Shown one piece after another: positions 8,171 to 63,687 of a stretch of 64,000 nt of DNA. A model generated the notes under the pieces. That model was not told where the DNA came from, searched no databases, and was given only the letters and a program-made list of their open reading frames with translations. Both the position numbers and the translations under genes were made by a program. Origin of the DNA: an uncultured delta proteobacterium (GTDB lineage Bacteria > Desulfobacterota > RBG-13-43-22). Numbering within the stretch: the stretch's first letter is position 1; each line of letters opens with the position of its first letter. The stretch is from the NCBI GenBank assembly GCA_963746605.1, contig CAVVCH010000054.1, positions 21,366 through 85,365 on the forward strand, read 5' to 3'.

Positions 8171-10266
8171 ATGAAATTTTTTTTTGAACCCCGGGGAGTG
8201 GCTGTCATCGGCGCCACGCCCAAGCCCAACACCGGCGGCTTAAGTCTGATCACCAACCTGACCCTGGGCTACGACGGCCCGATTTACCCGGTCAACCCCC
8301 GTTACTCGGAAATCGTCGGCCTCCCCTGTTACCCGCGCATATCCGAAGTCCCCGATCCCATCGAATTGGCCCTGATCTTCGTTCCGGCCCCCGGCGTACC
8401 CTCCGTGCTGGAGGAATGCCTGGCCCGCGGCTTGAAAGGGGCCATCATCGAATCCGGCGGCTTTGCCGAAGTGGGTCCCGAGGGAAAGGCCCTTCAGGAC
8501 CGCTGCCTGGAAATCGCCCGCCGGGGCGGAATGCGGCTCTGGGGTCCCAACTGCATGGGACTGATCGATATCCGGAAACGATATGTTTTTTCCTTTCTCA
8601 CCCCGGATGCCTGGCAGGATGTGTTAAACCCCGGGGGCGTCTCGCTGATCGTTCAGAGCGGCCTGCTGGCCGGCGGTTTTATGACCACCCTCATGAGCCA
8701 TAAGACCCTCGCCCTGGCCAAGGCCTGCTCCATCGGCAATAAAAGCGACGTGGATGAAACCGATCTGCTGGAATATTTCTTGGAAGATGCCGACACCCGG
8801 GTCATCGCTCTCTACGTCGAGTCGTTCCCCCGGGGGCGGCGTTTTTTCGATCTGGCCTCCCAGGGGAAAAAACCCATCGTGGTGCTCAAGGGGGGTAAAA
8901 GCGCCTCCGGCGCCCGGGCAGCCGCTTCCCACACGGCTTCACTGGCCGGGAACTTTGAACTGGTCCGGGGCGCGCTGGACCAGGCCGGGGTTTATCAGGC
9001 CGATGATTTTTTTGAGCTGGTGGACCTGGCCCGGACCCTGGAAATGGATTTCGTTCGGGACCGGCCCGACGAAGGGAAAACCCCGGGTGGGTGTCTTTAC
9101 CTTCAGCGGGGCCGCCGGGATCGTGACCAGCGATCACCTGGAGGCCGAGGGCCTGACGCTGGCCACCCTTTCTCCGGAAACCCGGCAGCGGTTGGAACAA
9201 TATTCTCCCTCTTGGATGCCGGTGAACAATCCGGTGGATTTCTGGCCGGCCATGGAAAAACATGGTCCGGAGATCACCTACCGGGAAGGGCTGGCCGCCC
9301 TGGTGAACGATCCCGGGGTGGACGGGATCATCGTTCATCTTTTTGCCGGGTTCGGGGTCTGGTTCCTGGATATGGAAAAAATTCTGTCCGGCCTCCCACG
9401 ACCCTGCAAGCCCATCCTTTTCTGGGTCATGGGCCATGAGAAAGGTTTTCAGGCCACCCGGCTGGCCATCGAAAAACAGGGCTTCCCGGTCTTCAACGAA
9501 ATCCAACGGGTGGTCCGGGTGCTGGCCGGAATTCTGGAAGGCCGGGAAACAGGAGCCGTTGCCCCCGAAAAACACACTCTCCCGGATTGAACCGCTGCTC
9601 CGACAGATAAAACAAGCGATCGAAGTCCGCCCGGAAAAGGTTCTGGATGAGTGGGAGTCCAAAAAGATACTCCGGGAATTGGGCTTGGCCACCGTGCCGG
9701 AAATCCTCGTCGAGGACCTGCCGGGCGCCCTGGAAGCAGCCCATTCCTTCGGCTACCCGGTGGTGCTTAAAGGCCGGTCACCGGGTCTGGTCCATAAGAC
9801 CGAGGCCGGCCTGGTTCGACTCGACCTCCACACCCCGGAACAGCTGCAATCCGCATTCCGGGAAATGACCGCCCGCCCAAATCCTCCCGCCTCTTTTATG
9901 GTTCAACCGCAGCTCAAAGGCGACCTGGAATTAATCGTCGGGGTGGTCAGGGACCCTCAATTCGGGCCGGCGGTGATGCTGGGCCTGGGGGGGATCCGGG
10001 CCGAAATTTACCGGGATGTGGTCTTTCGCCTGGCTCCGGTAACTGAGGAAACCGTCCGACGCATGGCGGAAGGGTTGAAAGGTCAGGTACTTTTCCAGGG
10101 CTATCGGGGGGCCGCCCCGGTGAAGATGGATTTATTAGCAGAATGGTTGATTCGTTTGGGAGAATTGGCCTGCCAGGTGGAGGCCATCCAGGAAATCGAC
10201 GTGAATCCCCTGTTGGTGGTGCAGGGAGAGCCGATCGCCGTGGATGCCTCCATTATTCTAAGATGA
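8171..10266 (+). pseudogene. Acetate--CoA ligase (ADP-forming) / CoA-binding family protein split into three ORFs by two frameshifts
   Basis: ORFs 8171..9439, 8754..9590 and 9343..10266 carry, in order, the CoA-binding domain (VAVIGATPKPNTGG), the central domain and the ATP-grasp domain; frame changes near 9080 and 9575 coincide with homopolymer runs. Confidence 0.7.
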
Positions 10267-10701
10267 TCGGCTGAAAGGATCCCTTACGTCAAGAAAAGAA
10301 AATTTGAGAAAGTCTCGATCGTGAGTAAAAAGTGTTTTAACGCCATGTTGTCGGAGCAGCGCGGCCAAATGGGAATCCGGCACCAAGTTCCCCCGAGTGG
10401 GAACCTCGGCTGTGACTTCACGGTAGATTTCCCAAAAACCTTCCTCCTCAGATAGAAGGCGGGCATGGGGGAGGTTAAGGAGAGACTCCATATTGGCCAT
10501 GGCTTCTTCGGGTGATAGCGGGTGTTCGAATACCGCCGCGTGCGTGGCTATGCGTAAGTAACCCATAACCGTAGGCCAGCCCAGATAAAATAGGTCCCTC
10601 TTCGTAATACAATCCCCGATAAAGGTCCTGGCCTCATTGAAGAAAGGACTGTTCGTGTCCGAGGCGTAAAGGAGAATGTTGACGTCCAGGGCAAAACTCA
10701 T
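10258..10701 (-). CDS. vapC: Type II toxin, PIN domain (VapC family)
   Basis: 147 aa; LDVNILLYA ... LVPDSHLAALLRQHGVKTLFTHDRDF; 4-bp overlap with the upstream antitoxin. Confidence 0.75.
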   Translation of the reverse strand: MSFALDVNILLYASDTNSPFFNEARTFIGDCITKRDLFYLGWPTVMGYLRIATHAAVFEHPLSPEEAMANMESLLNLPHARLLSEEEGFWEIYREVTAEVPTRGNLVPDSHLAALLRQHGVKTLFTHDRDFLKFSFLDVRDPFSRSS

Positions 10702-10961
10702 GTTTTTTTCGAACTTCGGACAGAGGAAGTTCCTTGTTCCATCGCCCGGTACACGGCCTCACGATCCGCCAAATCAACGCGAACACCCATCGGTTTTGAA
10801 ATCCATCGTGTCGTCTGGATCGGACGCTTAACCGATTGACGCTCCCCTAGCGCCTGGGCCAGCAGATTGGAGATCAACCGTCCCAGGGATTGCTTATCCT
10901 GCTTTTGAATCTTCTTCAAGTCCATTAGAATTCGATCGTCAATATTTACCGTGGTTCTCAT
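10698..10961 (-). CDS. vapB: Type II antitoxin (VapB-like, ribbon-helix-helix)
   Basis: 87 aa; MRTTVNIDDRILMDLKKIQKQDKQSLGRLISNLL; gene order and overlap with the PIN toxin. Confidence 0.65.
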   Translation of the reverse strand: MRTTVNIDDRILMDLKKIQKQDKQSLGRLISNLLAQALGERQSVKRPIQTTRWISKPMGVRVDLADREAVYRAMEQGTSSVRSSKKT

Positions 10962-11390
10962 GATGTTTTGATGATTAAATAGAACGCATCAGATGTCAAG
11001 CCTATTTTTGATCAAAAGATAAATGGCCGTATTTCGCCCAATAACGAATGGGAGGCTTAGCCAACGCACGTTTGAATTTTAATGAGCAGCGCCCCCAAAA
11101 AAAGCTTGACAATGAATTGGCAATGAAATATCACGTTTCTTAAATGGAAACTTTGGTTTAATAAAAAACTTTATATATAATAATTAGTTGATTTATATTA
11201 TATTAATCGTGCTTGACCGTATACAAAACCCTTATGCTTTTGAATCTGATTTAGGATATACTTAATCGGCATCCCGTTCCTCCTCTGGTGATGGTTTGTT
11301 TTCGCACAACTTCCATCTTGCCAGATTTGAGAGCGGGGTGCTCTTCCATTTTAAACTAACTTTTATACTCGATTGGTGACCTTTATTACC

Positions 11391-11543: not shown

Positions 11544-11596
11544 TAGGCCGCCGTGCCTGGGCCTTTATTTCTTGATCATTCAAGGAGCGTATCTTC

Positions 11597-13472
11597 ATGA
11601 AAGAGAATTATCTAATTCAAAACCTCGATGACATCGCAGCGCTGGAAGAGGTTCCCCTCCTGGAGCGCATCAAGGAAAGAAATACCTATGAGCTGCTGGA
11701 GAAAGGGGCCGCCATCAATCCTCAGGCCAAGGCCTTGACCTTCCTGCGGAGTGGAGAGGCCTACCTGGATCCGGTTCAATACACCTATCAAGAGCTCATG
11801 GGCAAGATCCGTCAAACAGCCAATCTGTTTCACGACCTGGGAATCGGACCCCGGGATGTGGTCACGTATCTCTTACCCAACCTTCCCCAGACCCACTTTG
11901 TTCTTTGGGGGGGTGAGATCGCCGGCATTTCCAATCCTATCAATCCCATGCTCGAGGCGAATACTATCCGGGACATCTGTCAGGCGGCCGGGACCAAGGT
12001 CCTGGTCGCTTTGGGAGAGACCCCCGGTTCGGATGTCTGGAGCAAAGTTGAGGCCATCCGCAAAGAGATCCCTTCCCTAAAATATGTAGTCCGGGTCCTA
12101 GGCCCCGGTGATGAGGCCGAAGGGATTATCGGTTACGAAGAACGGATGGCCGCCTATCCGGAAGAGAGGTTGACTTTCCAACGGGTCTTCGATCCCGAAG
12201 ATATCGCCTCTCTTTACCATACCGGTGGAACAACCGGTCGGCCCAAATTGGCCCGGCGCAGTCATTTTAACGAAACCGTCCTGGCCTGGGATTTAAGGAT
12301 CAGTATTGGCTTGCAGCCTGGTGAAGCGGTCATGTGCGGGCTGCCCCTCTTTCATTGCAACGGGACTTGTGTGACCGGCTTGTCGCCTTTTTCCATTGGA
12401 GGAGAGGTGGTCCTCCTTTCCCCGGCCGGCTACCGCGATCCGGCCGTCATCAAAAACTTTTATAAGATCGTGGAGCGTTACCGCCCGGTCATGTTTTCTT
12501 GTGTGCCCACGGTCCTGTCCATGCTTCTGGATACGCCGGTGGGAGGTGCGGATATCTCGTCGCTCCGTTATTTGATCTGTGGGGCCGCCCCTTTGAGCGT
12601 GGAACTCTTCCGCCGCTTTGAACAGCACTCGGGGATGAAGATTCTGGAAGGATACGGTTTGACCGAATCAACTTGTGCTTCCGCCGTAAATCCCAAGGAT
12701 GGGGAGCGCAAGGTAGGCAGCATTGGATTGAAATTGCCTTATCAGCAGATCAAGATCGCTATTCTGGATGAGCAGGGTCAATATCTCCGGGATGCCCAGA
12801 CTGGGGAGATCGGGGCGGTCTGCATCAAGGGGCCCACCATCTTTAAAGGGTATGTGGAGGAAATCCACAACCGGGGCATCTGGATCGGGGACGGCTGGTT
12901 CAATACCGGCGATCTGGGCCGGCAGGATGAGGACGGTTACCTCTGGCTGACCGGGAGGAAGAAGGAATTGATTATTCGAGGGCGGTCATAATATCGATCC
13001 GGCCGCTATTGAGGAACCGCTTTATAAGATGGAAGGCATCAAGATGGCCGCCGCCGTGGGACGTCCGGACCCGCATGCCGGCGAGGTCCCGGTCGCCTAT
13101 GTAGAGGTCCATGAGGGAGCCGCGGTGAACCCCGACTCTATCATGGAATGGGCCCGACAGCATGTGGGGGAAAAGGCCGCCATTCCTAAGGAGGTCGTCA
13201 TCCTCGACCGAATTCCCCTGACCGCGATCGGTAAGATCTTCAAGCCGGCCTTACGTTGGGATGCCATCCGTAGGACCTACGAGCAGGAACTGAAGAACCT
13301 CGGCGACTTGGCCCAGACCCTGGAGGTTACCGTAGGGGAGGATAAGGTCCACGGAACCCAGGCGACCATCCGGGTCAAGCCGGCGCCTGAGACCGATCGC
13401 TCCACCCTGGTCAACCGAATTTCCGAACTGCTGGCCCGGTATACCGTTCATTACGAAGTGATTCTGGAATAG
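11597..13472 (+). CDS. AMP-dependent synthetase/ligase (acyl-CoA synthetase), one frameshift near 12975
   Basis: ORF 11597..12991 has the AMP-binding motifs (YHTGGTTGRPK, TGDLG); ORF 13029..13472 is the C-terminal domain; the junction sits in a G-run. Confidence 0.75.
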
Positions 13473-13707: not shown

Positions 13708-15394
13708 CTACTCCGCCGCGGGAGGGAAGTAGAGAACAAAGCTGGCGCCCGAGCCGACAGTGCTTTCCACCTGGATCCACCCCTTGTGATCCTCCAGGAC
13801 TTTCTTGGCCATGGAAAGACCCAGTCCGATCCTTTTATCGGAGACCCTGGTCGTGAAAAAGGGTTCAAAAATCCGGTTCAGATCTTCTTCCTTAATCCCT
13901 TCGCCGGTGTCGCTTACCTTGACCGTCGCATAGGCCGACCCGTTGACCGTCGCTGTACCCGTGGCCACAGATAGCCGGCCTCCGTGCGGCATAGCGTCGA
14001 TGGCATTGAAAATAAGATTCTCGACCGCCACCAGGAACAACTCCCTTTCCCCCTCGATGGGCGGCACGTCTCCCAAGGACCGCTCTATGGATATGGAGCG
14101 CTCTTTACACAGCTCCTCGAAAATCCCCAGGGCTTCCCGGACAATGTCTTTCAGGTCGCACCTCTCCGGGCGGGCGGCTTGGCCCCAGGATAAAGAAAGG
14201 ACGTTTCGCAATATGATTTCCAGGCGGCCGACCTCGGCCAGAATAAATTTCGTATACTCCTTCTCTTTAGACCCTTCGGGAATCTTTTTGTCGAGTCTCC
14301 TGACGAATCCGCCGACGGCGGTCAGGGGGTTTCTGATTTTGTCGGCCACACTGGCGGTTATTCTGCCCGAGGGCCGCTCTTTTCTCCGCCTCGGCCAATT
14401 CCTCCTTAAGCCGGCTTTTCTCCATTTCGGCTTGCTGACGCATCATCACGGCGGCCAGGGTATCGGCCACGGCCGCCAGGAACCTCTCTTCCTCCAAGGT
14501 TTTTTCGTGGCTTTCTTCGATGGAGATGATGATCAGTCCCAGCGTCTGTCCGGCTGAGGCAATGGGCAGGCAATAATAGCCGTGCGGAAATTGAACGGGC
14601 CGTTGGATTCCCTGTTTTCCGTCCAAACATTCCGTACGGGCCGTCGTACAGGTTGAGATGTCTTTCCCGCACAGGCATTGGCCGAAGGAGATCCTGGCGC
14701 AGGGAGGGGGCATTTCGGGAAGGGTGCGCCAGGCTTTTAAAACCAGGACTTCCGGTTCGTTTTCGACTGTATAGATGCTTCCCTGGCCTTGGGAGGAAAG
14801 GCCGGGGATCATCAAAATCAGGTCCAGTACTCTGTTCAACTGCTCTTCCAGGGAAATCGGCTCCAAGGAAATCTTGAGCACGGAGCTGATGGCCGTCTGG
14901 ATCCGGTAATTCCGCTCAATCTGCAATTCCGCCTGCTTGCGTTCCGTGACGTCTCTAATCGAGGCAATGACCAGCAATTCCCCGTTCGTCTCGATCGGAC
15001 TCAGACTGATGTCAGCCGGGAATTCGGTCCCGTCTTTTCTGAGTCCGTAGATATTAAGGGCGGCTCCCATGTTTCGAACACGGGGATGCGAAAAGTAGTC
15101 GGCCACATTCTTTCTATGGTTGAGGCCATATCTTTCCGGAATCAGGAGGTGAAGGTCCTTACCAATCAAATCTTCATCGGAGTATCCGAATAATTTCTCC
15201 GCCTGGGCATTGGCGAGAACAATCCGGGCCTCTCGATTGACGAAGAACATGGCGTCCGGGGTCGATTCCACGAGTTTATCGTATTTGCCCTGGATGGCCT
15301 GCTTTTCCCAACCGCACCTATCGAGTAACTGAAGTTGCCGGCGCATTTTTTCCAGTTCCTGCGATAGTTGCTCTCTGGTCATGCGTTTTTTCAT
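13708..15394 (-). CDS. PAS/GAF-containing sensor histidine kinase, one frameshift near 14350
   Basis: ORF 14267..15514 carries the PAS and GAF regions, ORF 13708..14349 the HisKA/HATPase_c part (IRNPLTAVGGF, DTGEGI); likely start MKKRMT at 15394. Confidence 0.75.
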
Positions 15395-16052: not shown

Positions 16053-16337
16053 ATGAGGGCCTTTAAACGCGTTCCGAAGTGAAGAGCTGCTACCCGAGGA
16101 ATTATTGGGTTTATTCAGAACAATGGCTGGTTTTACTCATTGGCCCGCCGGAAGCTGAGACAACTTGAGATTGCCGGTAGGATAGATGATCTGAGAGTGC
16201 CGCCCGGAAATCGTCTTGAAACACTCAAAGGTGATCGTTACGGCCAGTACAGTATTCGTATCAACGATCAATGGCGTGTCTGTTTTAATTGGAATGAAGA
16301 AGTTGCAGAAAATGTTGAAATCGTGGATTACCATTAA
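16053..16337 (+). pseudogene. higB: HigB-family toxin, degraded (N-terminal part out of frame)
   Basis: C-terminal 65 codons read RKLRQLEIAGRIDDLRVPPGNRLETLKGDRYGQYSIRINDQWRVCFNWNEEVAENVEIVDYH, a typical HigB C-terminus; the only ATG (16053) gives MRAFKRVPK then a stop. Confidence 0.55.
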
Positions 16338-16349: not shown

Positions 16350-16602
16350 ATGAATAAACTCAAACCCATTACTCCCGGTGAAATCCTGCTGGAAGAATTT
16401 CTTAAACCGATGGGGTGAACCAGTTCGCTTAGCCAAAGACATAGGAGTCCCACCCCAGCGCATCAGCGATATTGTTGCCGGTAAGCGAGCCATACGGCGG
16501 ACACCGATGGCACTACGGCTGTCCAGATCCTCTGGTCTGACGAACGGCTACTTGGCTGCGCGCTCAGGCTGCCCATGCATCACTGAAATCGCGGAGCGTT
16601 GA
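16350..16602 (+). pseudogene. higA: HigA-family HTH antitoxin, frameshifted
   Basis: MNKLKPITPGEILLEEFLKPMG then a frame change; second frame ...LAKDIGVPPQRISDIVAGKRAI... is the Xre-type HTH. Confidence 0.55.
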
Positions 16603-16609
16603 ACTGATC

Positions 16610-17500
16610 GGTTCTGGCAAAAATCAGCCCCTCCCCACACCACCTAGCATGCGGGTCCGCACTAGGCGGTTCCCAGAGGCTACCGAGCCGTAGCCGGGTA
16701 ATGGATGTTTACCCACTGATCTTTGACAGACAGCAAACCTTGATCCTTGAGTCACGCCAAGGCGTGATCATGCCTGTCTGGGTGGCCAGCGTGCGTGAGA
16801 GTCGCCAGGGGCCTTTCCGGCTCATCCCGACCGAGATAGCGGTCCGCAGGTGTTCATTGGGATTGGGCTTATCGGCAACGCGCCGGCCACTCGCTCCCCC
16901 GGACGGGTTTATGGCGATGGTCGAGCTTACCGGGCCTTTTCCCTGCTCTGGGTTCGGTCCTTCGTTCGTTGATGGCGAACTACTATGACCTCGGCTGACT
17001 CCTGCCCGGTCAATCGACATGTTTCCAGGCCGGATGCTGTCCAATGTTAACTGGACCGCCTGCCGAACAGGTCTCCCCGGACTCAGTTCAGTACTCCCTC
17101 AGGGGTTAAGACGTGATCTGTCGTTACACAACCGCGGCATTTACCGCGTCTCCTAAACCCGGGGCTTTGTCATGTCGTGCTGACTTACCCGGAGACTTGG
17201 CCTTGTATGCCATTTCTGTACCCCGGATCAGGTCCGGGGCAGGCTTGGCTCATAGCTTTGCGCTCCAGCTTCCTTCGGACGATCCCTCGCGAGCATCGCC
17301 CTTGCTTTCGGCTAGTATTTATGTTCCTGTCTTACGACAGTACGGGTTTACATCAGGGGACTTTCACCCCATAAGATCACGCCCATGCCGGGCGTACACT
17401 AGAATCGTTCGCACCGGATCGGCACCGCTACCCCGGGACAAAACGCGGACATGAAGCTGGTCTCGTGACAAAATGGTCGAGGCTACCGATGGAAAGGATT
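16610..17500. other. ORF-free GC-rich segment of about 0.9 kb; candidate structured RNA or decayed element
   Basis: Six-frame ORFs here give only Pro/Arg/Ser/Gly-rich non-protein-like translations; many local hairpins, e.g. CCCCGGA-ucagg-UCCGGGG at 17221-17239. Confidence 0.2.
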
Positions 17501-18363: not shown

Positions 18364-18906
18364 ATGAGCCGACCTTTGCGCATCCGATATCCCGGGGCGG
18401 TATATCACGTCACCTGTCGGGGCAATGACCGTCAGGACATCTTCCGGGACGATACGGACCGGACGGAGTTCCTGGAAATCCTGGCGGGGTCCCAAACCAT
18501 CTATAACGTGAAGATGTACGCCGCGGTTTTGATGGGGAACCATTTTCATTTGCTGCTGGAGACCCCTCTGGGCAATCTGAACGAATTCATGCGGCGGTTT
18601 AACATCACGTATACCGGCTATTTCAACCGCCGGCACCGGCGGGTGGGCCACTTGTACCAGGGCCGATATAAAAGCATTCTGGTAGAAAAAGAGAGCTATC
18701 TGTCCGAGCTGTCCCGTTATATCCACTTGAACCCGGTCCGGACCCGAGAGCTGGAATCGGAGAACGCCAAAGTCCGGTGGCACTATCTGCTGGACTATCC
18801 CTGGAGCACCTTCCCGGGATATTTGAATGCCAAAGACCGATGGCCGGGGGTGGATTACGGGTTGGTCTTAGGTGAATTCGGCGTGGACAACCCGAATAAA
18901 AGATAA
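18364..18906 (+). CDS. Y1 HuH transposase-like protein (IS200-like fold), truncated paralog
   Basis: 180 aa nearly identical to the first 170 aa of ORF 20843..21823 (HVTCRGN, HFHLLL, YQGRYKS); diverges after ...EFG and ends early. Confidence 0.7.
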   Translation: MSRPLRIRYPGAVYHVTCRGNDRQDIFRDDTDRTEFLEILAGSQTIYNVKMYAAVLMGNHFHLLLETPLGNLNEFMRRFNITYTGYFNRRHRRVGHLYQGRYKSILVEKESYLSELSRYIHLNPVRTRELESENAKVRWHYLLDYPWSTFPGYLNAKDRWPGVDYGLVLGEFGVDNPNKR

Positions 18907-20842: not shown

Positions 20843-21823
20843 ATGAGCCGACCTTTGCGCATCCGATATCCCGGGGCGGTATATCACGTCACCTGTCGGG
20901 GCAATGACCGTCAGGACATCTTCCGGGACAATACGGACCGGACGGAGTTCCTGGAAATCCTGGCGGGGTCCCAAACCATCTATAACGTGAAGATGTATGC
21001 CGGGGTTTTGATGGGGAACCATTTTCATTTGCTGCTGGAGACCCCTCTGGGCAATCTGAACGAATTCATGCGGCGGTTTAACATCACTTATACCGGCTAT
21101 TTCAACCGCCGGCACCGGCGGGTGGGCCACTTGTACCAAGGCCGATATAAAAGCATTCTGGTAGAAAAAGAGAGCTATCTGTCCGAGCTGTCCCGTTATA
21201 TCCACTTGAACCCGGTCCGGACCCGAGAGCTGGAATCGGAGGACGCCAAAGTCCGGTGGCACTATCTGCTGGACTATCCCTGGAGCACCCTACCGGGATA
21301 TTTGAATGTCAAAGACCGATGGCCGGGAGTGGATTACGGGTTGGTTTTAGGTGAATTCGGCGGGGACAACCCGAAGGGACGGCGTGGTTATGGAAAACGG
21401 ATCCGAGAGGACCTCGTCGGGGGCATCGAACTGAAAGGAAAAATAGTCGGCGGGTGTGTTCTGGGCCGGGCGGGTTATATCCAATGGGTCCGGGAAAAAC
21501 ACATTAAGGAACTGCCGGTCGGGGATTACACCGGATATAAAGCCTTGAAACGCTATCGATCCAAGGAGCAGGTCCTGGATTTGCTGGCAGTAGAAACCGG
21601 CCTGAGTTTGGAAGAGGTTAAATCTTCCAAGGGGGACCGGCGCCGGTTGGCCATGGAATTGCTGTACCGGGTGGGCGGATTGACCGGAGACGAGATCGGA
21701 AGCCTTTTCGGGATAGGCGCCAGCGCAGTCAGTCAGGAAAGGAAAAGGCTGGTGTCCCGAATGGCGGAAGATGAGGCCGTGAAAAAGCTGTTTGAGGAAC
21801 TGTTTTCGAAATGTTCGGTATAG
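20843..21823 (+). CDS. Y1 HuH transposase-like protein with C-terminal DnaA-like HTH domain, full-length paralog
   Basis: 326 aa; HuH motif HFHLLL, tyrosine region YQGRYKS, C-terminal ...GLTGDEIGSLFGIGASAVSQERKRL. Confidence 0.75.
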   Translation: MSRPLRIRYPGAVYHVTCRGNDRQDIFRDNTDRTEFLEILAGSQTIYNVKMYAGVLMGNHFHLLLETPLGNLNEFMRRFNITYTGYFNRRHRRVGHLYQGRYKSILVEKESYLSELSRYIHLNPVRTRELESEDAKVRWHYLLDYPWSTLPGYLNVKDRWPGVDYGLVLGEFGGDNPKGRRGYGKRIREDLVGGIELKGKIVGGCVLGRAGYIQWVREKHIKELPVGDYTGYKALKRYRSKEQVLDLLAVETGLSLEEVKSSKGDRRRLAMELLYRVGGLTGDEIGSLFGIGASAVSQERKRLVSRMAEDEAVKKLFEELFSKCSV

Positions 21824-21998: not shown

Positions 21999-22880
21999 AT
22001 GTCAGTGAACGTTAAAGATTTGTATCAAAACAAAAAACCGGCTGTTTCCATGGAATTTTCTCCCCCCAGAGACCAAAAAGCGGCTGAATCCTTTTCGGAC
22101 ACTGTGGATAGCCTATCACGGCTGAAGCCGGATTACCTGTCCGTTACATTCGGCGCCGGTGGTTCCACCCGTGAAGGGTCCTACCAGACGGTCAAGCAGT
22201 TGATAGCCGACAAACACTTGCCTACGGTGGCTTACATAGCGGGATACGGTCTGGGGCCTGATCAGATTGTCAGCGTTCTGGACGATTATAAAGCGCTGGG
22301 CGTCCAAACCATTTATGTAATCAGAGGCGATCAACCCAAAGAAAAGGATTTTACCGCCCATCCGGATAGTTTTGCCCATGCTTCGGATATAATCGCTTTT
22401 ATAAAAAAGCGCTATGATTTTATACTTGGATGTGCCGGATACCCCGAAGGGCATGTCGAAGCTGAAAGTCTGGAAAAAGACATCGAATATCTGAAGCAAA
22501 AAGTGGACAACGGCGTGAACTATGTTGTGACTCAGTATTTCTACGACAACGACTATTTTTTGCGCTTCGTTGACAAGTGCCACACGATTGGCATCAATGT
22601 GCCGATTATTCCGGGCATTATGCCGGTGTATACAGTAAAAATGACCCAAATGTTGTCCAAGATATGTGGCTCCAAAATTGTACCTCAATTGCAGCGTCGT
22701 TTGGATGGCGTGGATCAGGCCGACAGTCAGGCGGTACTCCAGGTAGGCATCGATTTTGCCACCGAGCAATGCCAAGGTTTGCTCAAAGAGGACGTGGCCG
22801 GACTTCATTTTTACACGATGAACCGAAGCTATTCGACCACAGAAATCATCAATCGATTGAAACAAGACCATCTGTTGTAG
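21999..22880 (+). CDS. metF: 5,10-methylenetetrahydrofolate reductase
   Basis: 293 aa with MetF-like layout (SVTFGAGGSTR, YVVTQYFYD); appears AT-richer than neighbouring genes; GTG at 22005 is an alternative start. Confidence 0.85.
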   Translation: MSVNVKDLYQNKKPAVSMEFSPPRDQKAAESFSDTVDSLSRLKPDYLSVTFGAGGSTREGSYQTVKQLIADKHLPTVAYIAGYGLGPDQIVSVLDDYKALGVQTIYVIRGDQPKEKDFTAHPDSFAHASDIIAFIKKRYDFILGCAGYPEGHVEAESLEKDIEYLKQKVDNGVNYVVTQYFYDNDYFLRFVDKCHTIGINVPIIPGIMPVYTVKMTQMLSKICGSKIVPQLQRRLDGVDQADSQAVLQVGIDFATEQCQGLLKEDVAGLHFYTMNRSYSTTEIINRLKQDHLL

Positions 22881-27261: not shown

Positions 27262-27325
27262 CGCAGAGTTTACCCTGAGCCGAAAACCGAGATCCTTCGC
27301 TTCGCTCAGGATGACAGCAGGCGAA
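27262..27325. repeat. Family A repeat unit
   Basis: CAGAGTTTACCCTGAGCCGAAAACCGAGATCCTTCGCTTCGCTCAGGATGACAG. Confidence 0.6.
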
Positions 27326-27395: not shown

Positions 27396-29127
27396 CTACC
27401 GCACCGTCAGGTGCCGGTACTTCGGGAGATAGCGCACCGGTTTTTTTAACGCGTCCCGGCGAAAGGGTTCGGCCAGGACCTTTTCACCGCCTTCGATCAC
27501 CGCGTTGATCACGCAGGGCCGGTTGGACTTGACGGCCTCGCGCACCACCTCCGGCACATCCCGGTAATCCTCTACCCGAAAGCCTTTGGCCCCCATATCC
27601 TCAGCCAAACGCGCGATAATCCGGATTGTCCGGCAGGTTGGAGCCCACAAAACGGTTATCGTAATAATCGATCTGATTTTTCTTTTCCGCGCCCCACTCA
27701 AAGTTATTGGCTACTACGGCAATCACCGGAATATTCTCCCGCACCGCCGTCATGACTTCGGCCAGGCCGCTGATCCCGTAGGCCCCGTCCCCCTGGAAGG
27801 CAAAAACCGGCGTTTTCATCCGGCCGATCTTGGCCCCCAGGGCAGCCCCGTAGGCAAAGCCGCAGTTTCCCCAGCTCAAGGCGGCCAGGTGCTGCCGGAC
27901 GTCGGTGAATTTCAGATAGGCATTGCACAGGGAGGAATTATTGCCGATGTCCGTGCTGACGATGGAACCCGCCGGGATGGCCCGGGACAGCTCCCATAGA
28001 AATCGCCGAGGATGCATCAGCCGGGAGGTGGAGAAAGATTTCTTCCTTAATTCCTCGGACCAGTCCCCCTTCTCCTTTTCCAACTCCCGCAGCCGTTTTC
28101 GAACCACTTTTTTCTCCGGTTTGCGGTTTTTGAGCAGCAGGATCATTTCCCGGGCGAAAGCCTTCACCTCCGCCGGGCTGGCCACGTCCACCCGCCGGCT
28201 GAGTCCCAGGACCCGGGCATTCACGTCCACCTGGATGAGTTTGGCCTGTTTGGGCCAGTAATCCAATCCGTACTGGGGCAGGGTGCCGAAGGGTCCCAGA
28301 CGGGTGCCCAAAGCCAGCACCACATCCGCTTGGGCCAAGGTCCGCATGGCCGCCTTGGAGCCGCAATAGCCGATGGGTCCCACGGCCAGCGGGTGGTCCC
28401 CAGGGAAAGAATCGTTGTGCAGGTAGGTGTTGGCCACCGGGGCGGTGAGGTATTCGGCCAGGGCCATCACTTCCTCCAGGGCGTCCCCCTGGGAGACCCC
28501 GCCGCCGGCCAGGATGACCGGGTTTTTGGCCTTGAGCAGCATTCGGGCGGCCGCTTCCAGGGCCTCCCTCGGACCACTGCCCCGAGAGACGGTCAAGGAA
28601 GGGTAGATCTCGTCCTCGCACAGGCCGTAGAAATAATCCCGGGGGATATTTAATTGGGTGGGGCCGTTTTCCAGCTTGGCCAGGTAGAAGGCCCGGCGGG
28701 CCAACTCGGCCATCCGCTCCGGCCGATTGACGCGCACCTGGTACACGGTCTGTTCCTTGAACCAGGCCATCTGGTCCAGTTCCTGGAACCCGCCGGTCCC
28801 GATCCCCAGGGACCCCGTTTCCGGGGTGATGGCCACTACCGGCGAGTGGGCCCAGAAGGCGGCGGTGACGGCGGAAACGAAATTGGCCGCCCCCGGCCCG
28901 TTCTGGGCGATGCAGACCTGGGGCCGGCCGGTCACCCGGGCCAGGCCGTCGGCCGCATGGGCCGCCGCCTGCTCGTGGGCCACGGAAACAAAGCGGATGC
29001 CCGCCGCCGGAAACAGATCCAGGGCGTCCATAAAGGCCGAGCCCACAATTCCAAAAACCGTCTTTACTCCTTCGGCCACCAGGGTCTCGACCAGCGCTTC
29101 GCTGGGGGTCATTTGTTGCTTGGGCAT
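27396..29127 (-). CDS. Thiamine-pyrophosphate enzyme (acetolactate synthase / sulfoacetaldehyde acetyltransferase-like), frameshift near 27600-27700
   Basis: ORF 27601..29127 has the TPP N-terminal and central domains (IAQNGPGAANF, GYCGSKAAM); ORF 27396..27701 is the C-terminal tail. Confidence 0.75.
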
Positions 29128-41509: not shown

Positions 41510-41517
41510 AACGAAAA

Positions 41518-41657
41518 ATGAACATCGAACATCGAACTTCCAACATCGAATGTTTAATGAAAAAGATGAAGAAGCAGAAATAGGGATCCCCTGTTCGGCA
41601 ATAGAGGTTTGTTTTTCATTCGAGGTTGGACGTTCGATGTTCGATGTTCGACGTTCA
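41518..41657. repeat. Family D palindromic element
   Basis: ATGAACATCGAACATCGAACTTCCAACATCGAATGTT ... GACGTTCGATGTTCGATGTTCGACGTTCAT. Confidence 0.65.
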
Positions 41658-48757: not shown

Positions 48758-48855
48758 TTTAATACGAAAATAACCAAAGACAGGGTTCAAGGGGTCGAGT
48801 GTAGGGGAGGGGTTAATCCCCTCCCGCACCCAGCCGGGCATAAATCATACTCCTG
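48758..48855. repeat. Family B composite element containing palindrome GTAGGGGAGGGGTTAATCCCCTCCC
   Basis: TTAATACGAAAATAACC...GGGTTCAAGGGGTCGAGTGTAGGGGAGGGGTTAATCCCCTCCCGCACCCAGCCGGGC; paralogous copy at 57011-57176, palindrome again at 63861-63885. Confidence 0.65.
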
Positions 48856-48946
48856 GACTCGAAAACCCGTCGGCCATCCCAGATATTAGGGGAGTACCGA
48901 CCCAAAAGGGCGAAACATAAATCACCGAAGAAAGGAGGTGAAGCGG

Positions 48947-50271: not shown

Positions 50272-52438
50272 ATGAACTCCCCCAGCGATCCATACCCCCC
50301 GGGATGCGCTTTCCCCCTCGGGGCCACTGTCGGCCCGGAGGGCGTCAATTTTAGCGTCTATTCCAAAAACGCAGACAAAGTGGACCTGCTTCTGTTCGAC
50401 CGGGCCGATGACGCTCGACCGGCCCGGATCATTTCCCTGGAACCAAATAAAAACCGGACTTATTTTTACTGGCATGTCTTCGTCCCCGGCCTGTCTTGCG
50501 GACAGATTTACGGCTATCGTGTTTTTGGCCCTTATGAACCGGAAAAAGGGCTGCGTTTTGACGGCCAAAAGGTTCTGCTGGATCCCTACGGAAAGGCCTT
50601 GGCAACGCCGCTTAATTACAGCCGTCTGGCCGCCGGCCTTCCGGGAGACAACACGGCCACGGCCATGAAGAGCGTGGTGGCGGATTTGAGCCTTTACGAT
50701 TGGGAGGGGGACGCGCCGCTTCGACGCCCTTTTTCCAATACCATTATCTATGAACTGCACGTCCGGGGGTTTACCCGTCATCCCAGTTCGGGTGTGCCAG
50801 CCGGATAAGCGGGGCACCTACGCCGGGTTGATCGAGAAAATCCCCTACCTGCAGGATTTGGGAATCACCGCCGTGGAACTGCTACCGGTCTTTCAATTCG
50901 ATGAACAGGATGCGCCCCCCGACTTCAAGAACTACTGGGGCTACAGCCCGGTCAGCTTCTTCGCCCCTCACGGGAGTTACTGCTCCTGCCGAGACCCCCT
51001 CGGTCCGCTGGATGAATTCCGGGATATGGTCAAGGCCTTGCACCGATTTGGGATCGAGGTGATCCTGGACGTGGTCTTTAACCACACGACCGAAGGGCAC
51101 GAATTCGGTCCGACGCTTTGCTACCGCGGTTTTGAAAACCGGGCCTACTACATCCTGGAAGCCGCCACCGGCCGGTACGCCAACTATTCGGGCTGCGGCA
51201 ATACCCTCAATTCCGGCAACTCCATCGTCCGACGGATGATCATCGATAGTTTGCACCACTGGGTCAAGGAGATGCACGTGGACGGCTTCCGTTTTGATCT
51301 GGCCGCCATTCTCTCCCGAGATGAAACCGGCCAACCGCTCGCCAATCCCCCGGTCCTCTGGGATATTGAATCCGACCCGGTCCTGGCCGGCACCAAGCTG
51401 ATTGCCGAGGCCTGGGACGCAGCCGGCCTTTACCAGGTAGGCAGCTTTGTCGGAGAAAGTTGGAAGGAATGGAACGGCAAGTTTCGGGATGATGTGCGGG
51501 GTTTCATCAAAGGCGATAGCGGCGTCGTCCCCTCGGTGGCCTCCCGTCTGTTGGGCAGCCCGGACCTTTATGGCGGGCAGGAACGCGAGCCGGAACAAAG
51601 CATCAATTTCATCACCTGCCACGACGGTTTCACCCTGAATGACCTGGTCTCTTACAACACCAAACACAACGAGGCCAACGGCGAGGAAAACCGCGACGGG
51701 ACCGACGACAACCTGAGTTGGAACTGCGGGGTGGAAGGTCCCACGGATAACCCGGAAATCGAAAAGCTCCGCAACCGCCAGGTAAAAAACTTTATGACCA
51801 TCACCCTTTTGGCCCTCGGGGCCCCCATGCTGCTCATGGGCGATGAGGTCCGGAGGACCCAGCAAGGCAACAACAACGCTTACTGCCAGGACAACGAAAT
51901 CAGTTGGTTTGATTGGGACCTGCTGGCTAAACACGGGGACCTGCACCGTTTCGTCAAGAACCTGATTGCGGCCCGCCTGCACACGGACACTTTCACTCCC
52001 AGCCAGGAGTTAACCTTGAGCCAGATCATCAGGCAGGCCCGTATTCATTGGCACGGGGTCAAACTCAGCCAACCCGATTGGAGTCCGGATTCCCATAGCC
52101 TGGCCTTGACGGTCTGGAGCCGCCGAGGCCGGCTGTTGACCCACATCATGTTGAACGCCTACTGGGGGCCCCTGGCCTTTGAACTACCGCCCGTTCAGAA
52201 CCTGCAGGGCAAGGCCTGGCACCGGTGGATCGACACCGCGCTGGATCCCCCCGAGGACATCGGCACTTGGGCTCACGCCCCTGCCGTTTCCGGATCTACC
52301 TACCCGGTGCAGCCCCGATCCATCGTGGTCCTGATGGAACGGATTGCGAAAGGATGTCGCCTAACAAGGAAAATGGACGATAATACGATATCTTTTGAAC
52401 GGTCCGTGACAGGATCGTCATTCCCGCAGCGCTTCTGA
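50272..52438 (+). CDS. glgX: Glycogen debranching enzyme GlgX, one frameshift near 50790-50810
   Basis: ORF 50119..50808 from MNSPSD holds the N-terminal domain; ORF 50750..52438 holds the GH13 catalytic domain (GFRFDLA, EAWD). Confidence 0.8.
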
Positions 52439-56244: not shown

Positions 56245-56424
56245 GTCATCCTGAGCCTTTCGCCTGCGGTCATCCTGAGCCGAAGCGAAGGATCTGGATT
56301 CTCGGCTCGGAAAGACTCGGAAGGATCTCGGTATTCGGCTCAGGGACTCGCGAAGGATCTCGTCTTTCGAGCCCAAAGCTCGCCAAAGGGATTCTTCAGT
56401 TGCTTCGCTCCTTCAGAATGACAG
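56245..56424. repeat. Cluster of family A repeat units
   Basis: GTCATCCTGAGCC... GTCATCCTGAGCCGAAGCGAAGGATCT ... CTTCAGAATGACAG. Confidence 0.6.
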
Positions 56425-57010: not shown

Positions 57011-57176
57011 TTAGTACGAAAATAACCGAATAGGGTACGAGGGAACCAGGGTTCAAGGGTTCGAATGTAGGGGAGGGGTTCATCCCCTCCCGGACCCAGC
57101 CGGGCCTATATCATGCCCTGGGAAAAATCTGAATCCTTAATTCCCAAGCTCGGGAGGGGGTTAACCCTCCCCTACT
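57011..57176. repeat. Family B composite element (paralog of 48758-48855) with two GGGAGGGG-TTAA-CCCCTCCC palindromes
   Basis: TTAGTACGAAAATAACC...GGGTTCAAGGGTTCGAATGTAGGGGAGGGGTTCATCCCCTCCCGGACCCAGCCGGGC...CGGGAGGGGGTTAACCCTCCCCTAC. Confidence 0.65.
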
Positions 57177-57302
57177 GGAAACTGATAATGGCCTCCGGGG
57201 ATGAGGAGGAAATGCCTCTAAATTCAATTTGGCTGGCGTTATTGTTTAAGGCGGGTGGATAACTGGGGAGAATGTTGAAAGGGATTGATTACTTGGACCC
57301 CG

Positions 57303-57698
57303 CTAAAGTTTTGAGCCTCTTGAAGATCTTCGGTCAGCAGATACCTGACATTGAGCTGTTTGAGCAGCGGAAACGATCAGGGCATCCCACCACGAAAGTT
57401 TATTCCGATCCTGTAACTCCCAAGCTCCCTTGATCACCTGCTTATCAACGGGAAGGGGATTCCAGGTCAGCAAAGCGTTTACATCTTCACGAGCCGTTGA
57501 AACCCTCAGGCCCGGTTGGAGCTTACCGGTTACGGTCACATAGAATTCCTGCAGAACTTGATAACTTATCCGCCCACATTTTTTATCCCAGAGAAAGGTC
57601 ATCCAAGCCAGGGCCTGCTTCTGTTTAACCGGTTCCGAACTATCTCGGATATAAACCAGTACATTGGTATCCACAAAAAATCTGCTATCTTCGTTCAT
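57303..57698 (-). CDS. vapC: Type II toxin, PIN domain (VapC family)
   Basis: MNEDSRFFVDTNVLVYI ... WWDALIVSAA; start set at internal Met 57698. Confidence 0.7.
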   Translation of the reverse strand: MNEDSRFFVDTNVLVYIRDSSEPVKQKQALAWMTFLWDKKCGRISYQVLQEFYVTVTGKLQPGLRVSTAREDVNALLTWNPLPVDKQVIKGAWELQDRNKLSWWDALIVSAAQTAQCQVSADRRSSRGSKL

Positions 57699-59288: not shown

Positions 59289-59428
59289 CAGGCGGGCGGG
59301 GATAAACCCCGCCACGATGAGATCCTCCCAGCTTGGGTAAACACGGTGAATAGGCGGGCGGGGATAAACCCCGCCCTACGGCAACACTCGTCCGAGCAAG
59401 GTAGGGGCGGGGTTTATCCCCGCCCGCA
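59289..59428. repeat. REP-like elements (GGCGGGCGGGGATAAACCCCGCC), two direct and one inverted copy
   Basis: Copies at 59291-59313 and 59353-59375, inverted copy GTAGGGGCGGGGTTTATCCCCGCCCGC at 59401-59427; the same unit recurs at 59926-60008. Confidence 0.7.
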
Positions 59429-59444: not shown

Positions 59445-59925
59445 TTGAAAAACTTGCAGGAAAGAAAAAGAATTCGACTGTCACGAAGCGCGTATGAGGA
59501 GGGCCAGGCCTTCTCCATTACCATAACCACAGCAGAAAGGTATCCATGGTTTAAAATCCATGGACAACTTGCAGACACGAGCATATCCCTGATCTCTGAC
59601 CCTGTCCCAAGAACGGGAGGCCGTGGTTTTTGCTTGGTGCATTATGCCGGATCATATCCACCTGCTCTTGCAGGACAATAATATCCTTGATCTGGTCCGT
59701 TTGCTCAAAGGAAGGCTTACCCCTGAAGCCCGTGGACTGGAACCTGGACGAGCCTTGTGGCAACGCAGCTTTTATGATCACGCCTTACGAAAAGAGGAAG
59801 CACTAGAGGATGTTGCCCGTTACATTTGGGAGAATCCGGTCCGCGCCGGAATAGTTGGTCGAGCTTCGGCCTATCCCTGGTCTGGTTCTCTGGTTTGGCC
59901 CGATTGGAAGGAATTCGTCGATTGA
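59445..59925 (+). pseudogene. REP-associated tyrosine transposase (RAYT, IS200-like Y1), frameshifted
   Basis: ORF 59445..59681 (...GQAFSITITTAERYPWF) and ORF 59623..59925 (WCIMPDHIHLLL HuH motif; WQRSFYDH catalytic Tyr region); flanked by REP doublets. Confidence 0.7.
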
Positions 59926-60219: not shown

Positions 60220-61446
60220 ATGAAAAAAACTTTACTTTTCGCATTGGTCTTGGGCTTGGCCGTAATGTTTGCCGTTCCGGCGTTCGCCTTCAAGATCGAG
60301 AGCGGCAAAGACACGAGCTTTTATTTTGGTGCCCTGGCCTATACGGACCTCGGTGCTTGGAATCGTAGCAAGGAATTAGCCCCGGGCGGCAAAAGCGACA
60401 GAACCGAGCTCGTGTTAGACGTTCCCCGCCATTCCCGTGTCCGAGGAAACCTGGACGTCGGCAATGTGGGCGCCTATTTTGAAGTCCGTTTGGGTGGCGA
60501 CCAGCAACTAGTCCAACGCCGGTAATGCCGCTTTCTCCAGCTCCGGTTACTATTTTGTTGAAAGCGCTAAACTCTATGGGTATTTCAAGTTTGGGAATTG
60601 CACCTTACTGGCCGGCAAGACCGACGGTCATTTTTATTCCGTGGCCCCTTATCAGAACTTAGGGTTCGATAACAATAACCACATCGCCGGTTTCGGCTGG
60701 GGCAACGTGTACGATCAACGGAACGCCCAGGTTCGTTTCTCCTCGGATCCTTCCAAGGCCTTCGGATACGACATTTCCCTGGTCCAGCCCCAGTACTATC
60801 AGGATAATGGCCTCGGACAAGTAGCTACTGGTGGCCAACCAATCCCTGGGCACCTTCCCCCTTACCGCTCTTAAATTGCGGATGAACTTCGGCATGGTTT
60901 CCCTGATGCCGGCCGGCTACGTCCAATACATCAAATGGAATGATTTACAGCAGCTCCCTAACGGCTCCCAGCCCGATGACAACATGACCTCTTGGGCCGT
61001 GGTGTTGCCGGTCGTGGTTAAGGCCGGGGCCTTTACGGGTACTTTCCAGGGTCTCTACGGAATAAACATCGGTTCCGCTCGTTTCTCCGGTTGGCGGCCC
61101 GTTGGCCTTGCAGAGCACCTTTCATGGGTATCGGAGAGATGTTAACGGGGCCGTTAAAAATACCACAGGCTACAACGGGTTTGCCGACTTGGCCTTCACC
61201 GCCGGGGCGGTTACGCCTCACTTCTATATCGGCTGTGACAGGGCCCAGAACGACGACGTCTATGTGGGCGACAAGTACAATGTCCGCATGATGTACGGTG
61301 CGGCCGTCAACTGGAAGATCGCGGATAGCTTCTACATCGTTCCGGAATTCACCTATTACGATTACGGGAAGAACCCGCTCGCTCCCAACAACCCCGATCT
61401 GGGCAAGGAATGGTTGGGCGGCGTGCAGTTCCAGTTTGTATTCTAA
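60220..61446 (+). pseudogene. Outer-membrane beta-barrel porin split into four ORFs by three frameshifts
   Basis: Signal peptide MKKTLLFALVLGLAVMFAVPAFA; successive ORFs 60220.., 60641.., 60831.., 61102.. end with ...GGVQFQFVF (C-terminal Phe typical of OM barrels). Confidence 0.6.
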
Positions 61447-61926: not shown

Positions 61927-62014
61927 TTGATCCAAAGACCAATTAACCCTCAAAGGCGGCGGCTCACCCCGCCGCCTTTTTTTCTTCTTTTTTCCTTCCT
62001 ATCGGGGAGGTTTC

Positions 62015-63067
62015 ATGAACCGTTTGATAAGCCGACGGACCTTTATCCAGGGCCTGGCTGTCTTTAGCGTCGGTTGGAGCGTCAGGAGCTGGTCGGCGCC
62101 GCTGAACACCACTCCTTTTTCCTCTTCCCTTTTTCAAACCACCGAGACCAGGAATCTGATGGGTACTTTTGTCACTGTTACCCTCCTCCATCCTTCCCGC
62201 GATCAGGCCCAGGACGTCCTCGGCGCCGCCTTTCAGCGCCTGGAGGCCCTGATCCCCTTGTTTGACCGGCATAATCCCGTCTCGGCTTTGAGCGTTTTGA
62301 ACGAGAGGGGCGTCCTGCCCGGACCGCCGCCCGAACTGGTCAATCTGCTGGACCGATCCCGGATCATCCATTCCGGGACTCGAGGTCTCTTCGATGTAAC
62401 CATCAAGCCCGTATTGGACCTTTATGAAGCTGAAAAGGAAAGGAGCCGCCTGCCCTCGGCTTCGTCCATCCGGGAGGCCCTGACCCGGGTAGGGACTTCA
62501 CTCCTGGAGATCAGTCCTCAAAAAATCGCTTTCCCCAGGGAGGGCATGGGGATCACCCTCGATGGGATCGCCAAAGGGACCCTGGTCGACGAAACCATCG
62601 CCTTTATCCGCCAGGCAGGGATTCGACATGCCCTGGTCGATGCCGGCGGGGACCTGAGGGTCATGGGAGGACGGGGCCCCGGTTCACCCTGGCGTATCGC
62701 GGTCCATAACCCTTTAGCCGGGAAAAAATCTCAAGAGACCGTTTTAATCCGGGAGGGGGCGATCGCCACCTCGGGAAATTATATGGTCTATTTTGATCAG
62801 GAAAAGATCCATCATCATATACTATCGCCTGAAAACGGATATTCCCCGGCCGGGGCGGTCAGCGCCACCGTCATATCTCCCGACGCGGAAACGGCCGATG
62901 CCCTGGCCAAGCCGCTCATGCTCTTCAGCCCGGCCGAAGGCCGGTCTTTTATCGAAGGGCGGGGACGCCTGGCAGCCATGCTCCTGACCGGGGAAGGGGA
63001 AAAAATCTATTCCGGCGGATGGCCGCGAAAACACCAAACGAAGGAAGGAAATACCAGCCATGTCTAA
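62015..63067 (+). CDS. apbE: FAD:protein FMN transferase (ApbE family), Tat-type signal
   Basis: 350 aa; SRRTFIQGLA twin-arginine region, ITLDGIAKG and ATSGNY ApbE motifs. Confidence 0.85.
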   Translation: MNRLISRRTFIQGLAVFSVGWSVRSWSAPLNTTPFSSSLFQTTETRNLMGTFVTVTLLHPSRDQAQDVLGAAFQRLEALIPLFDRHNPVSALSVLNERGVLPGPPPELVNLLDRSRIIHSGTRGLFDVTIKPVLDLYEAEKERSRLPSASSIREALTRVGTSLLEISPQKIAFPREGMGITLDGIAKGTLVDETIAFIRQAGIRHALVDAGGDLRVMGGRGPGSPWRIAVHNPLAGKKSQETVLIREGAIATSGNYMVYFDQEKIHHHILSPENGYSPAGAVSATVISPDAETADALAKPLMLFSPAEGRSFIEGRGRLAAMLLTGEGEKIYSGGWPRKHQTKEGNTSHV

Positions 63068-63687
63068 AAAATCCGTTCTAACGCCGGTCCTGTGGGGACT
63101 GGGGATGATTTTGTTTTTATCCGGATGGTCGACCGATCTCCGGGCCCAGGACAAAAAGTGGATCAAGAAGGGGGATGCCTTTCCGGAAGTGGCCCTGAAA
63201 ACCCCGTCCCAGGCCAAGGATAAGGCTTACCTGGGAATTTCCGGCGGCGACAACTTTCACGGTCAAAGACCTGAAGGCCGAAGTCATTTTAGTGGAGATA
63301 TTTGACGTCTATTGCCTGCCCTGCCAGAAACAGGTGCCCCTGTACAAACAATTGTTTGGCATGATTCAGGCGAATCCGGCCGTCCGGGATCAAATCAAAA
63401 TGATCGCTATCGCCACCGGGAACGACGAGGGAGAGATCAAAAAGTTTCAGGATCATTACCAAGTGCCCTATCCCATTATCTCCGATCCCAAATTCGTCCT
63501 CCATGAGGCGGTGGGAGGCCCCCCGGCCCCCTTTTCCATTATTGTGCGAAAAGAGCCCGGAGGAAAAACCGCCCTGGTGGCCGACACGCATTTGGGCTTT
63601 AACAATGATATGCAGGGGCTGTTCAAGCAACTACAATCTCTGGTGCGGTCGGCGCCGCCGTCACCGACCTCTCAGCCCAAGAAGTAG
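63060..63687 (+). CDS. Thioredoxin-like (TlpA/redoxin) protein, frameshift near 63290
   Basis: ORF 63060..63305 gives the signal peptide and N-terminus; ORF 63292..63687 has the CLPC active site (CxxC) and redoxin fold. Confidence 0.65.

Follow-up and report, generated by a model that had tools for sequence, protein, structure and literature searches.

Single-base frame breaks in fourteen genes of a Desulfobacterota contig: probable consensus errors lying mostly outside homopolymer runs

The stretch analysed here, referred to as the window, is 64 kb of DNA within contig CAVVCH010000054.1 (188,063 bp) of an uncultured delta proteobacterium, and its genes include those for sigma-54 activators, ADP-forming acyl-CoA synthetase, molybdopterin oxidoreductase, radical-SAM/SPASM proteins and many toxin-antitoxin pairs, a content suggestive of a Thermodesulfobacteriota / Desulfobacterales-like organism. 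Frame changes, numbering at least 22, were verified in fourteen of the roughly 58 genes in the window (~24%). Three kinds of evidence were used for the splits, namely Pfam domain parts that lie in different frames, comparison of DNA or protein with intact relatives, and single-base repairs. An earlier note, made from the sequence alone, had counted about 17 frameshifted genes. Thirteen of the fourteen genes that it named are confirmed here; the DUF2442-like gene gave no Pfam match in the six-frame polyproteins or in a hand-stitched candidate, and a second PIN toxin gene (57240-57698) had been missed. The span assigned to these genes began at 8171, which leaves the HD gene (4899) outside it. 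The expectation that a single-base indel would restore the frame relative to orthologs held in every testable case, where one edit of one base per break gave single full-length open reading frames (ORFs) and full-length Pfam matches.

The closest sequences compared with the window are contigs of the ENA assembly ERZ25039488, L033/L034 (136 kb) and L036 (13 kb), which have 97.5-98.6% DNA identity to it (the 98% relative) and are syntenic with 22.1-33.1 kb and 39.2-63.9 kb. L035, a 502-kb contig of ERZ25039539 with ~89% identity, is syntenic with ~26-48 kb. Two JGI contigs (~92% identity) cover 1-4.5 kb and a third (L121, 98.6% nucleotide identity) covers 30.5-32.6 kb, while the acyl-CoA synthetase gene is covered by a Logan contig, L119 (89% identity), and by L120 (78%). 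As L119 and L120 show no synteny to the window outside this gene, the HD, histidine kinase, higB and DUF2442-like genes could not be compared at the DNA level. Intact protein orthologs were used for the ADP-forming acyl/acetyl-CoA synthetase (ACS; 90% identity), the acyl-CoA synthetase (94%) and HigA (80%). A scan of genome contigs for glucokinase found relatives of at most 61% identity, which are unfit for junction mapping, and a scan of metagenomes for the acyl-CoA synthetase found at most 74%. Twelve sites were fixed to the base by DNA alignment (12979, 27615, 30006, 30348, 32599, 50799, 52352, 57344, 59595, 60511, 60839 and 61081); the breaks in the HD, kinase, thioredoxin-like and higA genes and the two in ACS were placed from protein alignments or from both translations.

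The first affected gene encodes an HD-domain protein (4899-5488, forward strand) with one frame change at a G6 run (5124-5129). The HD profile is matched in frame 1 only at positions 54-113, and adding one G produces a 196-aa ORF that matches positions 11-113 of 116. The event is likely a change from G7 to G6. The ACS gene (8171-10266, forward) is spread over three frames with the CoA-binding and Succ_CoA_lig domains in the first, Ligase_CoA_2 in the second and ATP-grasp_5 in the third. The two shifts already proposed for this gene were located at 9074-9087 (GGGAAAACCCCGGG, that is G3A4C4G3) and 9565-9576 (C5 A5 CACAC), and both fit a +1 event. The stitched product of 697 aa aligns along its full length (100%) with the 697-aa orthologs P0282 and P0283 at 90% identity, and deletion of bases 9084 and 9573 gives a single 697-aa ORF.

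In the FadD-like acyl-CoA synthetase gene (11597-13472, forward), the AMP-binding and AMP-binding_C domains occupy separate frames. An extra A at 12979 (TTCG[A]GGGC), which does not lie in a homopolymer, is seen in DNA alignments against both L119 and L120. The orthologs P0163 and P0164 are intact with lengths of 624-637 aa and the repaired window ORF has 624 aa. The PAS-GAF histidine kinase gene (13708-15394, reverse strand) carries one frame change near 14356-14365, which reads CAGAATAACC on the coding strand and adjoins GGG; it fits a +1 event with the exact base being ambiguous. The PAS and GAF domains are found in one frame and HisKA and HATPase_c in the other, and a one-base deletion gives a 563-aa ORF.

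The most heavily disrupted genes form the higBA toxin-antitoxin pair. In higB (16053-16337, forward), a single frame covers the C-terminal two thirds, with positions 28-91 of the 91-residue HigB-like_toxin profile matched at 16140-16334, and the N-terminal part falls outside that frame, which requires at least one break; an attempted reconstruction of the N-terminus did not extend the profile match. The antitoxin gene higA (16350-16690, forward) has about six small indels over all three frames, some of which compensate each other. The pieces MNKLKPITPGEILLEEFLKPMG, RLAKDIGVPPQRISDIVAGKRAI, TADTD, LRLSR, GLTNGY, WLRAQAAH, TEIAER and SVLAKI sit in different frames and are 97-100% identical to the intact 112-aa HigA P0402, such that 1-2 substitutions stand against ~6 indels in 330 nt. 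This excess of indels over substitutions is the opposite of what evolutionary decay would leave and fits an error process dominated by indels.

The thiamine pyrophosphate (TPP) enzyme gene (27396-29127, reverse), which resembles the sulfoacetaldehyde acetyltransferase gene xsc, has an extra base at 27615 (GCGC[G]ATAA), and positions 1-114 and 113-150 of TPP_enzyme_C are matched in two different frames. The extra base is absent from L036 (98.5%) and L035 (89%), both of which encode 576 aa, as does the repaired window ORF; 22 of the 24 members of this protein cluster have 576-586 aa. The neighbouring glpK gene (29155-30626, reverse) had been thought to need at least two frame changes and was found to have exactly two, caused by extra bases at 30006 (CTC[G]GCGG) and 30348 (CGGG[C]TGCC), which split FGGY_N. 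Both are private to the window in a three-way alignment with L036 and L035, and their deletion gives 489 aa with FGGY_N matched at 1-245 of 245. A third difference in this alignment, at 29446, is a frameshift of L036 and not of the window. The glpK gene of L036 (3005-4462) is called intact with 485 aa, and this private +1 puts the final ~110 residues into the wrong frame, which is open by chance in the GC-rich DNA. ORF length alone hides some errors of this kind.

The vapC-like PIN toxin gene (32411-32808, reverse) contains the only deletion among the twelve base-resolved breaks, a G5 to G4 change at 32599. Its in-frame profile match is limited to positions 1-47 and the repaired 132-aa ORF matches PIN 1-118 of 120. 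The G5 run is present in three independent assemblies (L036, L035 and L121), and a Logan contig from a fourth assembly encodes the intact 132-aa protein. The glycogen debranching enzyme gene glgX (50272-52438, forward) has an extra A at 50799 (TGCC[A]GCC), as the earlier list implied, and a second break absent from that list, an extra G at 52352 located three codons ahead of the true stop, which appends a 25-aa tail. CBM_48 and the catalytic domain are read in different frames; the 98% relative is intact with 696 aa, the length of most cluster members. The second PIN toxin gene (57240-57698, reverse) has an extra C at 57344 that removes the conserved C-terminal LLTED motif. A blastx alignment to the 152-aa PIN of the relative needs two frames, and the repaired product has 152 aa.

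A small IS200/Y1-type (RAYT-like) gene at 59445-59925 (forward) carries an extra T at 59595 (GATC[T]CTGA). Only Y1_Tnp positions 36-120 are matched in frame; the relative has one 159-aa ORF, and the repaired ORF, also of 159 aa, matches positions 9-119 of 121. We had also considered the transposase copy at 18364-18906 as the frameshifted RAYT gene, and rejected it as that copy is truncated without a frameshift. The porin-like gene, which encodes an outer-membrane beta-barrel (60220-61446, forward), has the three breaks earlier assigned to it, all extra bases, at 60511 (CTA[G]TCC), 60839 (CAA[C]CAA) and 61081 (CTC[G]TTT). Once they are deleted, the gene reads as one ORF of 407 aa that has a signal peptide and FQFVF at its C-terminus; the repaired product matched no Pfam family, and porin is a label taken from these features only. 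The 98% relative breaks the same gene elsewhere, ~30 nt past the first break of the window. Lastly, a thioredoxin/AhpC-like lipoprotein gene (Trx-like; 63060-63687, forward) is broken at 63250-63258, with the AhpC-TSA profile matched from position 16 onward in the frame that follows the break. Deletion of one base gives 208 aa that match AhpC-TSA at 3-100 and Redoxin at 1-103, and a paralog that lies downstream in L033 is in a single frame across the site.

The breaks had been described as falling mostly at homopolymer runs, a pattern from which an artefact was argued, and our alignments do not bear this out. Eleven of the twelve base-resolved breaks are insertions of one base. Run lengths in the longer allele are 1, 1, 2, 1, 5, 1, 2, 2, 1, 1, 2 and 1, and only the G5 to G4 change at 32599 lies in a run of three or more. 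The insertions occur in runs of length 1, 2 and at least 3 in 7, 4 and 0 cases respectively, and simulated random insertion in the window gave 58%, 22% and 20%. Indels inside homopolymer runs are thus not above chance. Replication slippage duplicates a neighbouring base, as is known from mutation spectra; here, seven of the eleven inserted bases match neither neighbour, as expected of random bases (58%). We looked for a shared motif around the inserted bases and found no convincing one, as TCGA, CGCG or CTAG arises at only some of the insertions. Random extra bases of this kind point to the residue of an imperfect consensus of noisy reads. The frequency of the breaks is ~0.3-0.4 per kb, or about Q34-35 for indels.

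Only the breaks of the HD gene (G6/G7) and the first PIN gene (G5/G4), the first break of higA (G4) and both ACS sites lie in or beside runs, and the exact placement in HD, ACS and higA is ambiguous. Runs of at least four bases occur every ~46 nt in the window and would be touched by a 30-nt interval 53% of the time and by a 100-nt interval 90% of the time. The density of short runs explains the earlier impression, because junctions placed by the overlap of ORFs nearly always include a run.

The breaks were observed to be private to the window. At all twelve sites where DNA of relatives is available, between one and three other assemblies (among L033, L034, L036, L035, L119 and L121), independent of this one and from the same or a closely related lineage, lack the indel and show the intact state. 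The protein clusters show the same picture. The 422-aa ACS, 464-aa acyl-CoA synthetase and 196-aa GlpK fragments are one-member clusters, each from one contig, and the Xsc and GlgX fragments fall in clusters that are mostly full length (576 and 696 aa). The full-length proteins in the clusters of the broken products are drawn from a large number of assemblies at JGI, Logan, ENA and NCBI.

Sibling assemblies, which appear to share a data source to judge from adjacent ERZ numbers and the contig_N naming, have breaks of their own. Private frameshifts of ERZ25039488 were found in hyp108 (23165), glpK (29446), a PIN gene (32691), an AMP-binding gene (48425) and the porin-like gene. On contig_77268 of ERZ25039477 (L122, 517-13292), uvrD is in three pieces and miaB in two, and nadE, acs and EamA are truncated; this contig belongs to a related lineage, its NadE being 95.6% identical. 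Truncated NadE was also seen on several other long contigs. Breaks in these assemblies thus extend to indispensable genes, which indicates that frameshift errors are pervasive in assemblies of the same ERZ accession series.

Substitutions were tallied in the exact gene coordinates of the 98% relative. Broken genes apart from the porin-like gene have 48 synonymous and 16 nonsynonymous differences with no new stop, and intact genes have 110 and 65. For glpK and xsc, the 89% relative could be used as an outgroup and the window's own branch was found to carry 16 synonymous changes and one nonsynonymous change, together with three frameshifts. The porin-like gene stands apart with 41 synonymous and 42 nonsynonymous differences and one new stop, the only one in the comparison, as none was found in the ~30 kb compared outside this gene. 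Leaving the porin-like gene aside, the broken genes are otherwise undamaged, and the synonymous bias of their substitutions is as strong as that in the intact genes. Neither the mixture of lesion types expected of gene decay nor relaxed selection on the lineage that bears the lesions was observed, and the sole truncation is that of a separate transposase copy.

We consider that the breaks are probably indel errors in the consensus (assembly or polishing) of the single assembly behind this contig, to which we assign a probability of roughly 0.87. This is a strong inference from sequence comparison and not a proof. It is favoured because each tested break is private, because purifying selection otherwise acts on the genes and because sibling assemblies have private breaks of their own. 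We infer sequencing or consensus error on a long-read platform as the cause, the platform being read only from the Flye-style contig names and the error profile. Most likely, noisy long reads of modest or uneven depth would have given an assembly with locally variable consensus quality, and the imperfect consensus would leave single extra bases that mostly match neither neighbour and are not specific to homopolymers. The HD, ACS, acyl-CoA synthetase, histidine kinase, HigBA, Xsc, GlpK, GlgX, RAYT-like, porin-like and Trx-like proteins and both PIN toxins are very probably encoded intact in the true genome. The earlier preference for an artefact over pseudogenes is thereby upheld, as is its warning that every pseudogene or recoding call in this DNA is weakened, now on comparative evidence and no longer by the homopolymer argument.

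Indel errors in Nanopore and PacBio consensus assemblies are known to truncate predicted proteins, and length-ratio checks of the IDEEL type were made to detect this. The window resembles such cases in that many genes have splits of 1 nt that are private to one assembly and intact in short-read or other assemblies, with siblings hit elsewhere. It differs from the textbook nanopore error, a homopolymer deletion, in that most breaks are insertions of a non-neighbour base outside homopolymers. Metagenome-assembled genomes built from Nanopore reads with Flye and one round of Medaka have residual Nanopore-associated errors and reduced coding density when coverage is low (PMC12313526). The ERZ accessions could not be linked to the project of that study.

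Several observations weigh against consensus error as the explanation. The breaks are clustered, with the regions 5-17, 27-33 and 50-63 kb having them and 1-4.6 and 32.8-50.7 kb having none. About 16 kb of coding sequence in 32.8-50.7 kb is break-free, which would have a probability of ~1e-3 if the rate were uniform, so that an error model with a constant rate fails and local variation must be assumed. Locally variable depth or polishing would fit this clustering. Of the six frameshifts private to the 98% relative, four affect genes with breaks in the window as well (glpK, PIN, porin-like and Trx-like), an overlap with a binomial probability of ~0.05 by hand calculation, and this could hint at genes whose loss is tolerated. 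In addition, both assemblies lose the frame of the Trx-like gene at one common site, though with different lengths: GGCGGC and ACTTTC are separated by 4 nt in the window (63250-63258) and by 5 nt in L033 (~19571), and a multiple of three is needed. This coincidence suggests either a sequence context prone to miscalls or genuine variability at the site. The best-known nanopore error is deletion in homopolymers, and the strong insertion bias seen here is not expected from it. The contig is not linked to a particular sequencing project, and the support comes from comparison of sequences and not from the read level.

The alternative that survives best, which we regard as unlikely, is a mixed set in which most breaks are artefacts and some reflect genuine decay, for example in the 15.5-19 kb island of higBA, the DUF2442-like gene and the group II intron, in the Trx-like gene and perhaps in the porin-like gene. 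The island does contain lesions that look real and structural, namely a 5' fragment of the intron and the transposase truncated at 18896, but its higA pieces are nearly identical to an intact homolog and have more indels than substitutions. Similarly, the nearly equal numbers of synonymous and nonsynonymous differences and the new stop in the porin-like gene would suit decay, and yet three deletions repair it to a complete 407-aa barrel and the relative is broken elsewhere. The shared Trx-like site also speaks for a mixture, though a shared error-prone context could account for it. A narrower form, in which a minority of the breaks is real through independent inactivation of glpK, PIN, porin-like and Trx-like genes in two strains of 98% identity, or through a hypervariable Trx-like site at 63250, seems to us improbable; if true, independent inactivation in two strains would mean a lineage-wide loss of selection on these four functions.

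Still less probable, and in our judgement very doubtful, is that the breaks are real throughout and record a very recent, massive inactivation that left strain-private pseudogenes. The breaks do stand in the deposited sequence, some of the genes are dispensable (toxins, porin-like, RAYT-like, glgX and glpK), housekeeping-rich stretches of the window with nadE, acs, ABC-F, fba and glk are break-free, and glpK, PIN, porin-like and Trx-like are also broken in the 98% relative, at other sites or, in the Trx-like gene, with a different length. Against this, no nonsense mutation is found apart from that in the porin-like gene, selection is not relaxed even on the window's own branch (16 to 1), every comparable lesion is private and the inserted bases are non-templated. 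Multiple breaks occur within single genes whose sequence is 98-100% conserved apart from them (two in glpK, three in the porin-like gene and ~6 in higA), and the joint loss of uvrD, miaB, nadE and acs, all broken in one sibling assembly, is unlikely in a living cell. Genuine pseudogenes are abundant in decaying genomes such as those of Mycobacterium leprae, Shigella, host-restricted Salmonella and recent symbionts. The window is similar to these in its high interrupted fraction, but its broken genes have frameshifts only, with no truncating deletions or insertion-sequence insertions and with the one new stop, and its lesions are not common to relatives of 98% identity.

Programmed recoding by ribosomal frameshifting or transcriptional slippage, as known in prfB, dnaX and IS3-family transposases where the full product likewise needs a frame change, is hardly credible here, since it has in its favour nothing beyond the existence of frame changes and the A and C runs at the two ACS breaks, whereas the orthologs of every tested gene are single ORFs, neither a frameshift site nor a slippery motif is conserved in orthologs or shared among the sites, the positions differ between assemblies of 98% identity and the affected genes are functionally unrelated.

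The frame breaks are not a biological feature, and consensus error makes them a matter of quality control, as about one in four genes of the window is mis-predicted. The 422-aa ACS, 196-aa GlpK and 508-aa Xsc fragments are already present in public protein collections as though they were real proteins. Until the contig is polished, its gene calls are unsafe, and pseudogene counts, a toxin-antitoxin census, claims of recoding and metabolic reconstruction of glycerol, glycogen, sulfoacetaldehyde and acyl-CoA pathways should be withheld. Most of the errors lie outside homopolymers and therefore a correction restricted to homopolymers would mend very few of them.

Other features of the window were also noted. 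Synteny with the 98% relative ends at 21999-22093, within the first ~30 codons of metF and just downstream of a complete Y1 transposase gene, and the region 4.6-22 kb has no counterpart in the relatives compared. It looks like an island specific to the strain, with an abundance of toxin-antitoxin pairs (ParE, two PIN, HigBA and BrnTA). The region contains a group II intron remnant at 16957-17296 (reverse strand) with Rfam matches to D1-D4 pieces of 93 and 63 bits; no D5/D6 match was found even at a permissive threshold and no reverse-transcriptase ORF was found downstream. The remnant looks like a 5' fragment abutting the garbled higBA pair. Two copies of an IS200/Y1-type transposase gene are located at 18364-18906 and 20843-21823, both on the forward strand. 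The latter is complete, with 326 aa and a C-terminal helix-turn-helix, and the former is 97% identical for ~590 nt and stops abruptly at 18896, which is a structural truncation and not a frameshift. The 180-aa product of the truncated copy is catalogued separately in the protein collection.

Short intergenic repeats are found in several families. A 35-nt element, CGAGATCCTTCGCTTCGCTCAGGATGACAG, is present at 4713-4747, 27283-27317 and 63731-63765, and a 77-nt repeat with a GGGGAGGGG...CCCCTCCC hairpin at 48781-48857 and 57047-57123. Further repeats are located at 30953-31041 and 41514-41642 and at 34949, 37868 and 45911. The repeats may act as REP-like partners to the Y1/RAYT-like genes. When the window is aligned to the 98% relative, many of the longer indels lie inside such repeats, as at 56311-56348, 59341-59424 and 63719. 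At the start of the window, a 560-aa protein encoded at 280-1959 (reverse) has only a C-terminal PEP-utilizers swivel domain and is accompanied by a separate PPDK_N gene at 1-276 (reverse). The JGI relatives show the same order, Rph_4th and PEP-utilizers followed by PPDK_N, and the two genes, both intact and conserved, form a split pair of the rifampicin-phosphotransferase/PEP-synthase-like type that does not result from a frameshift.

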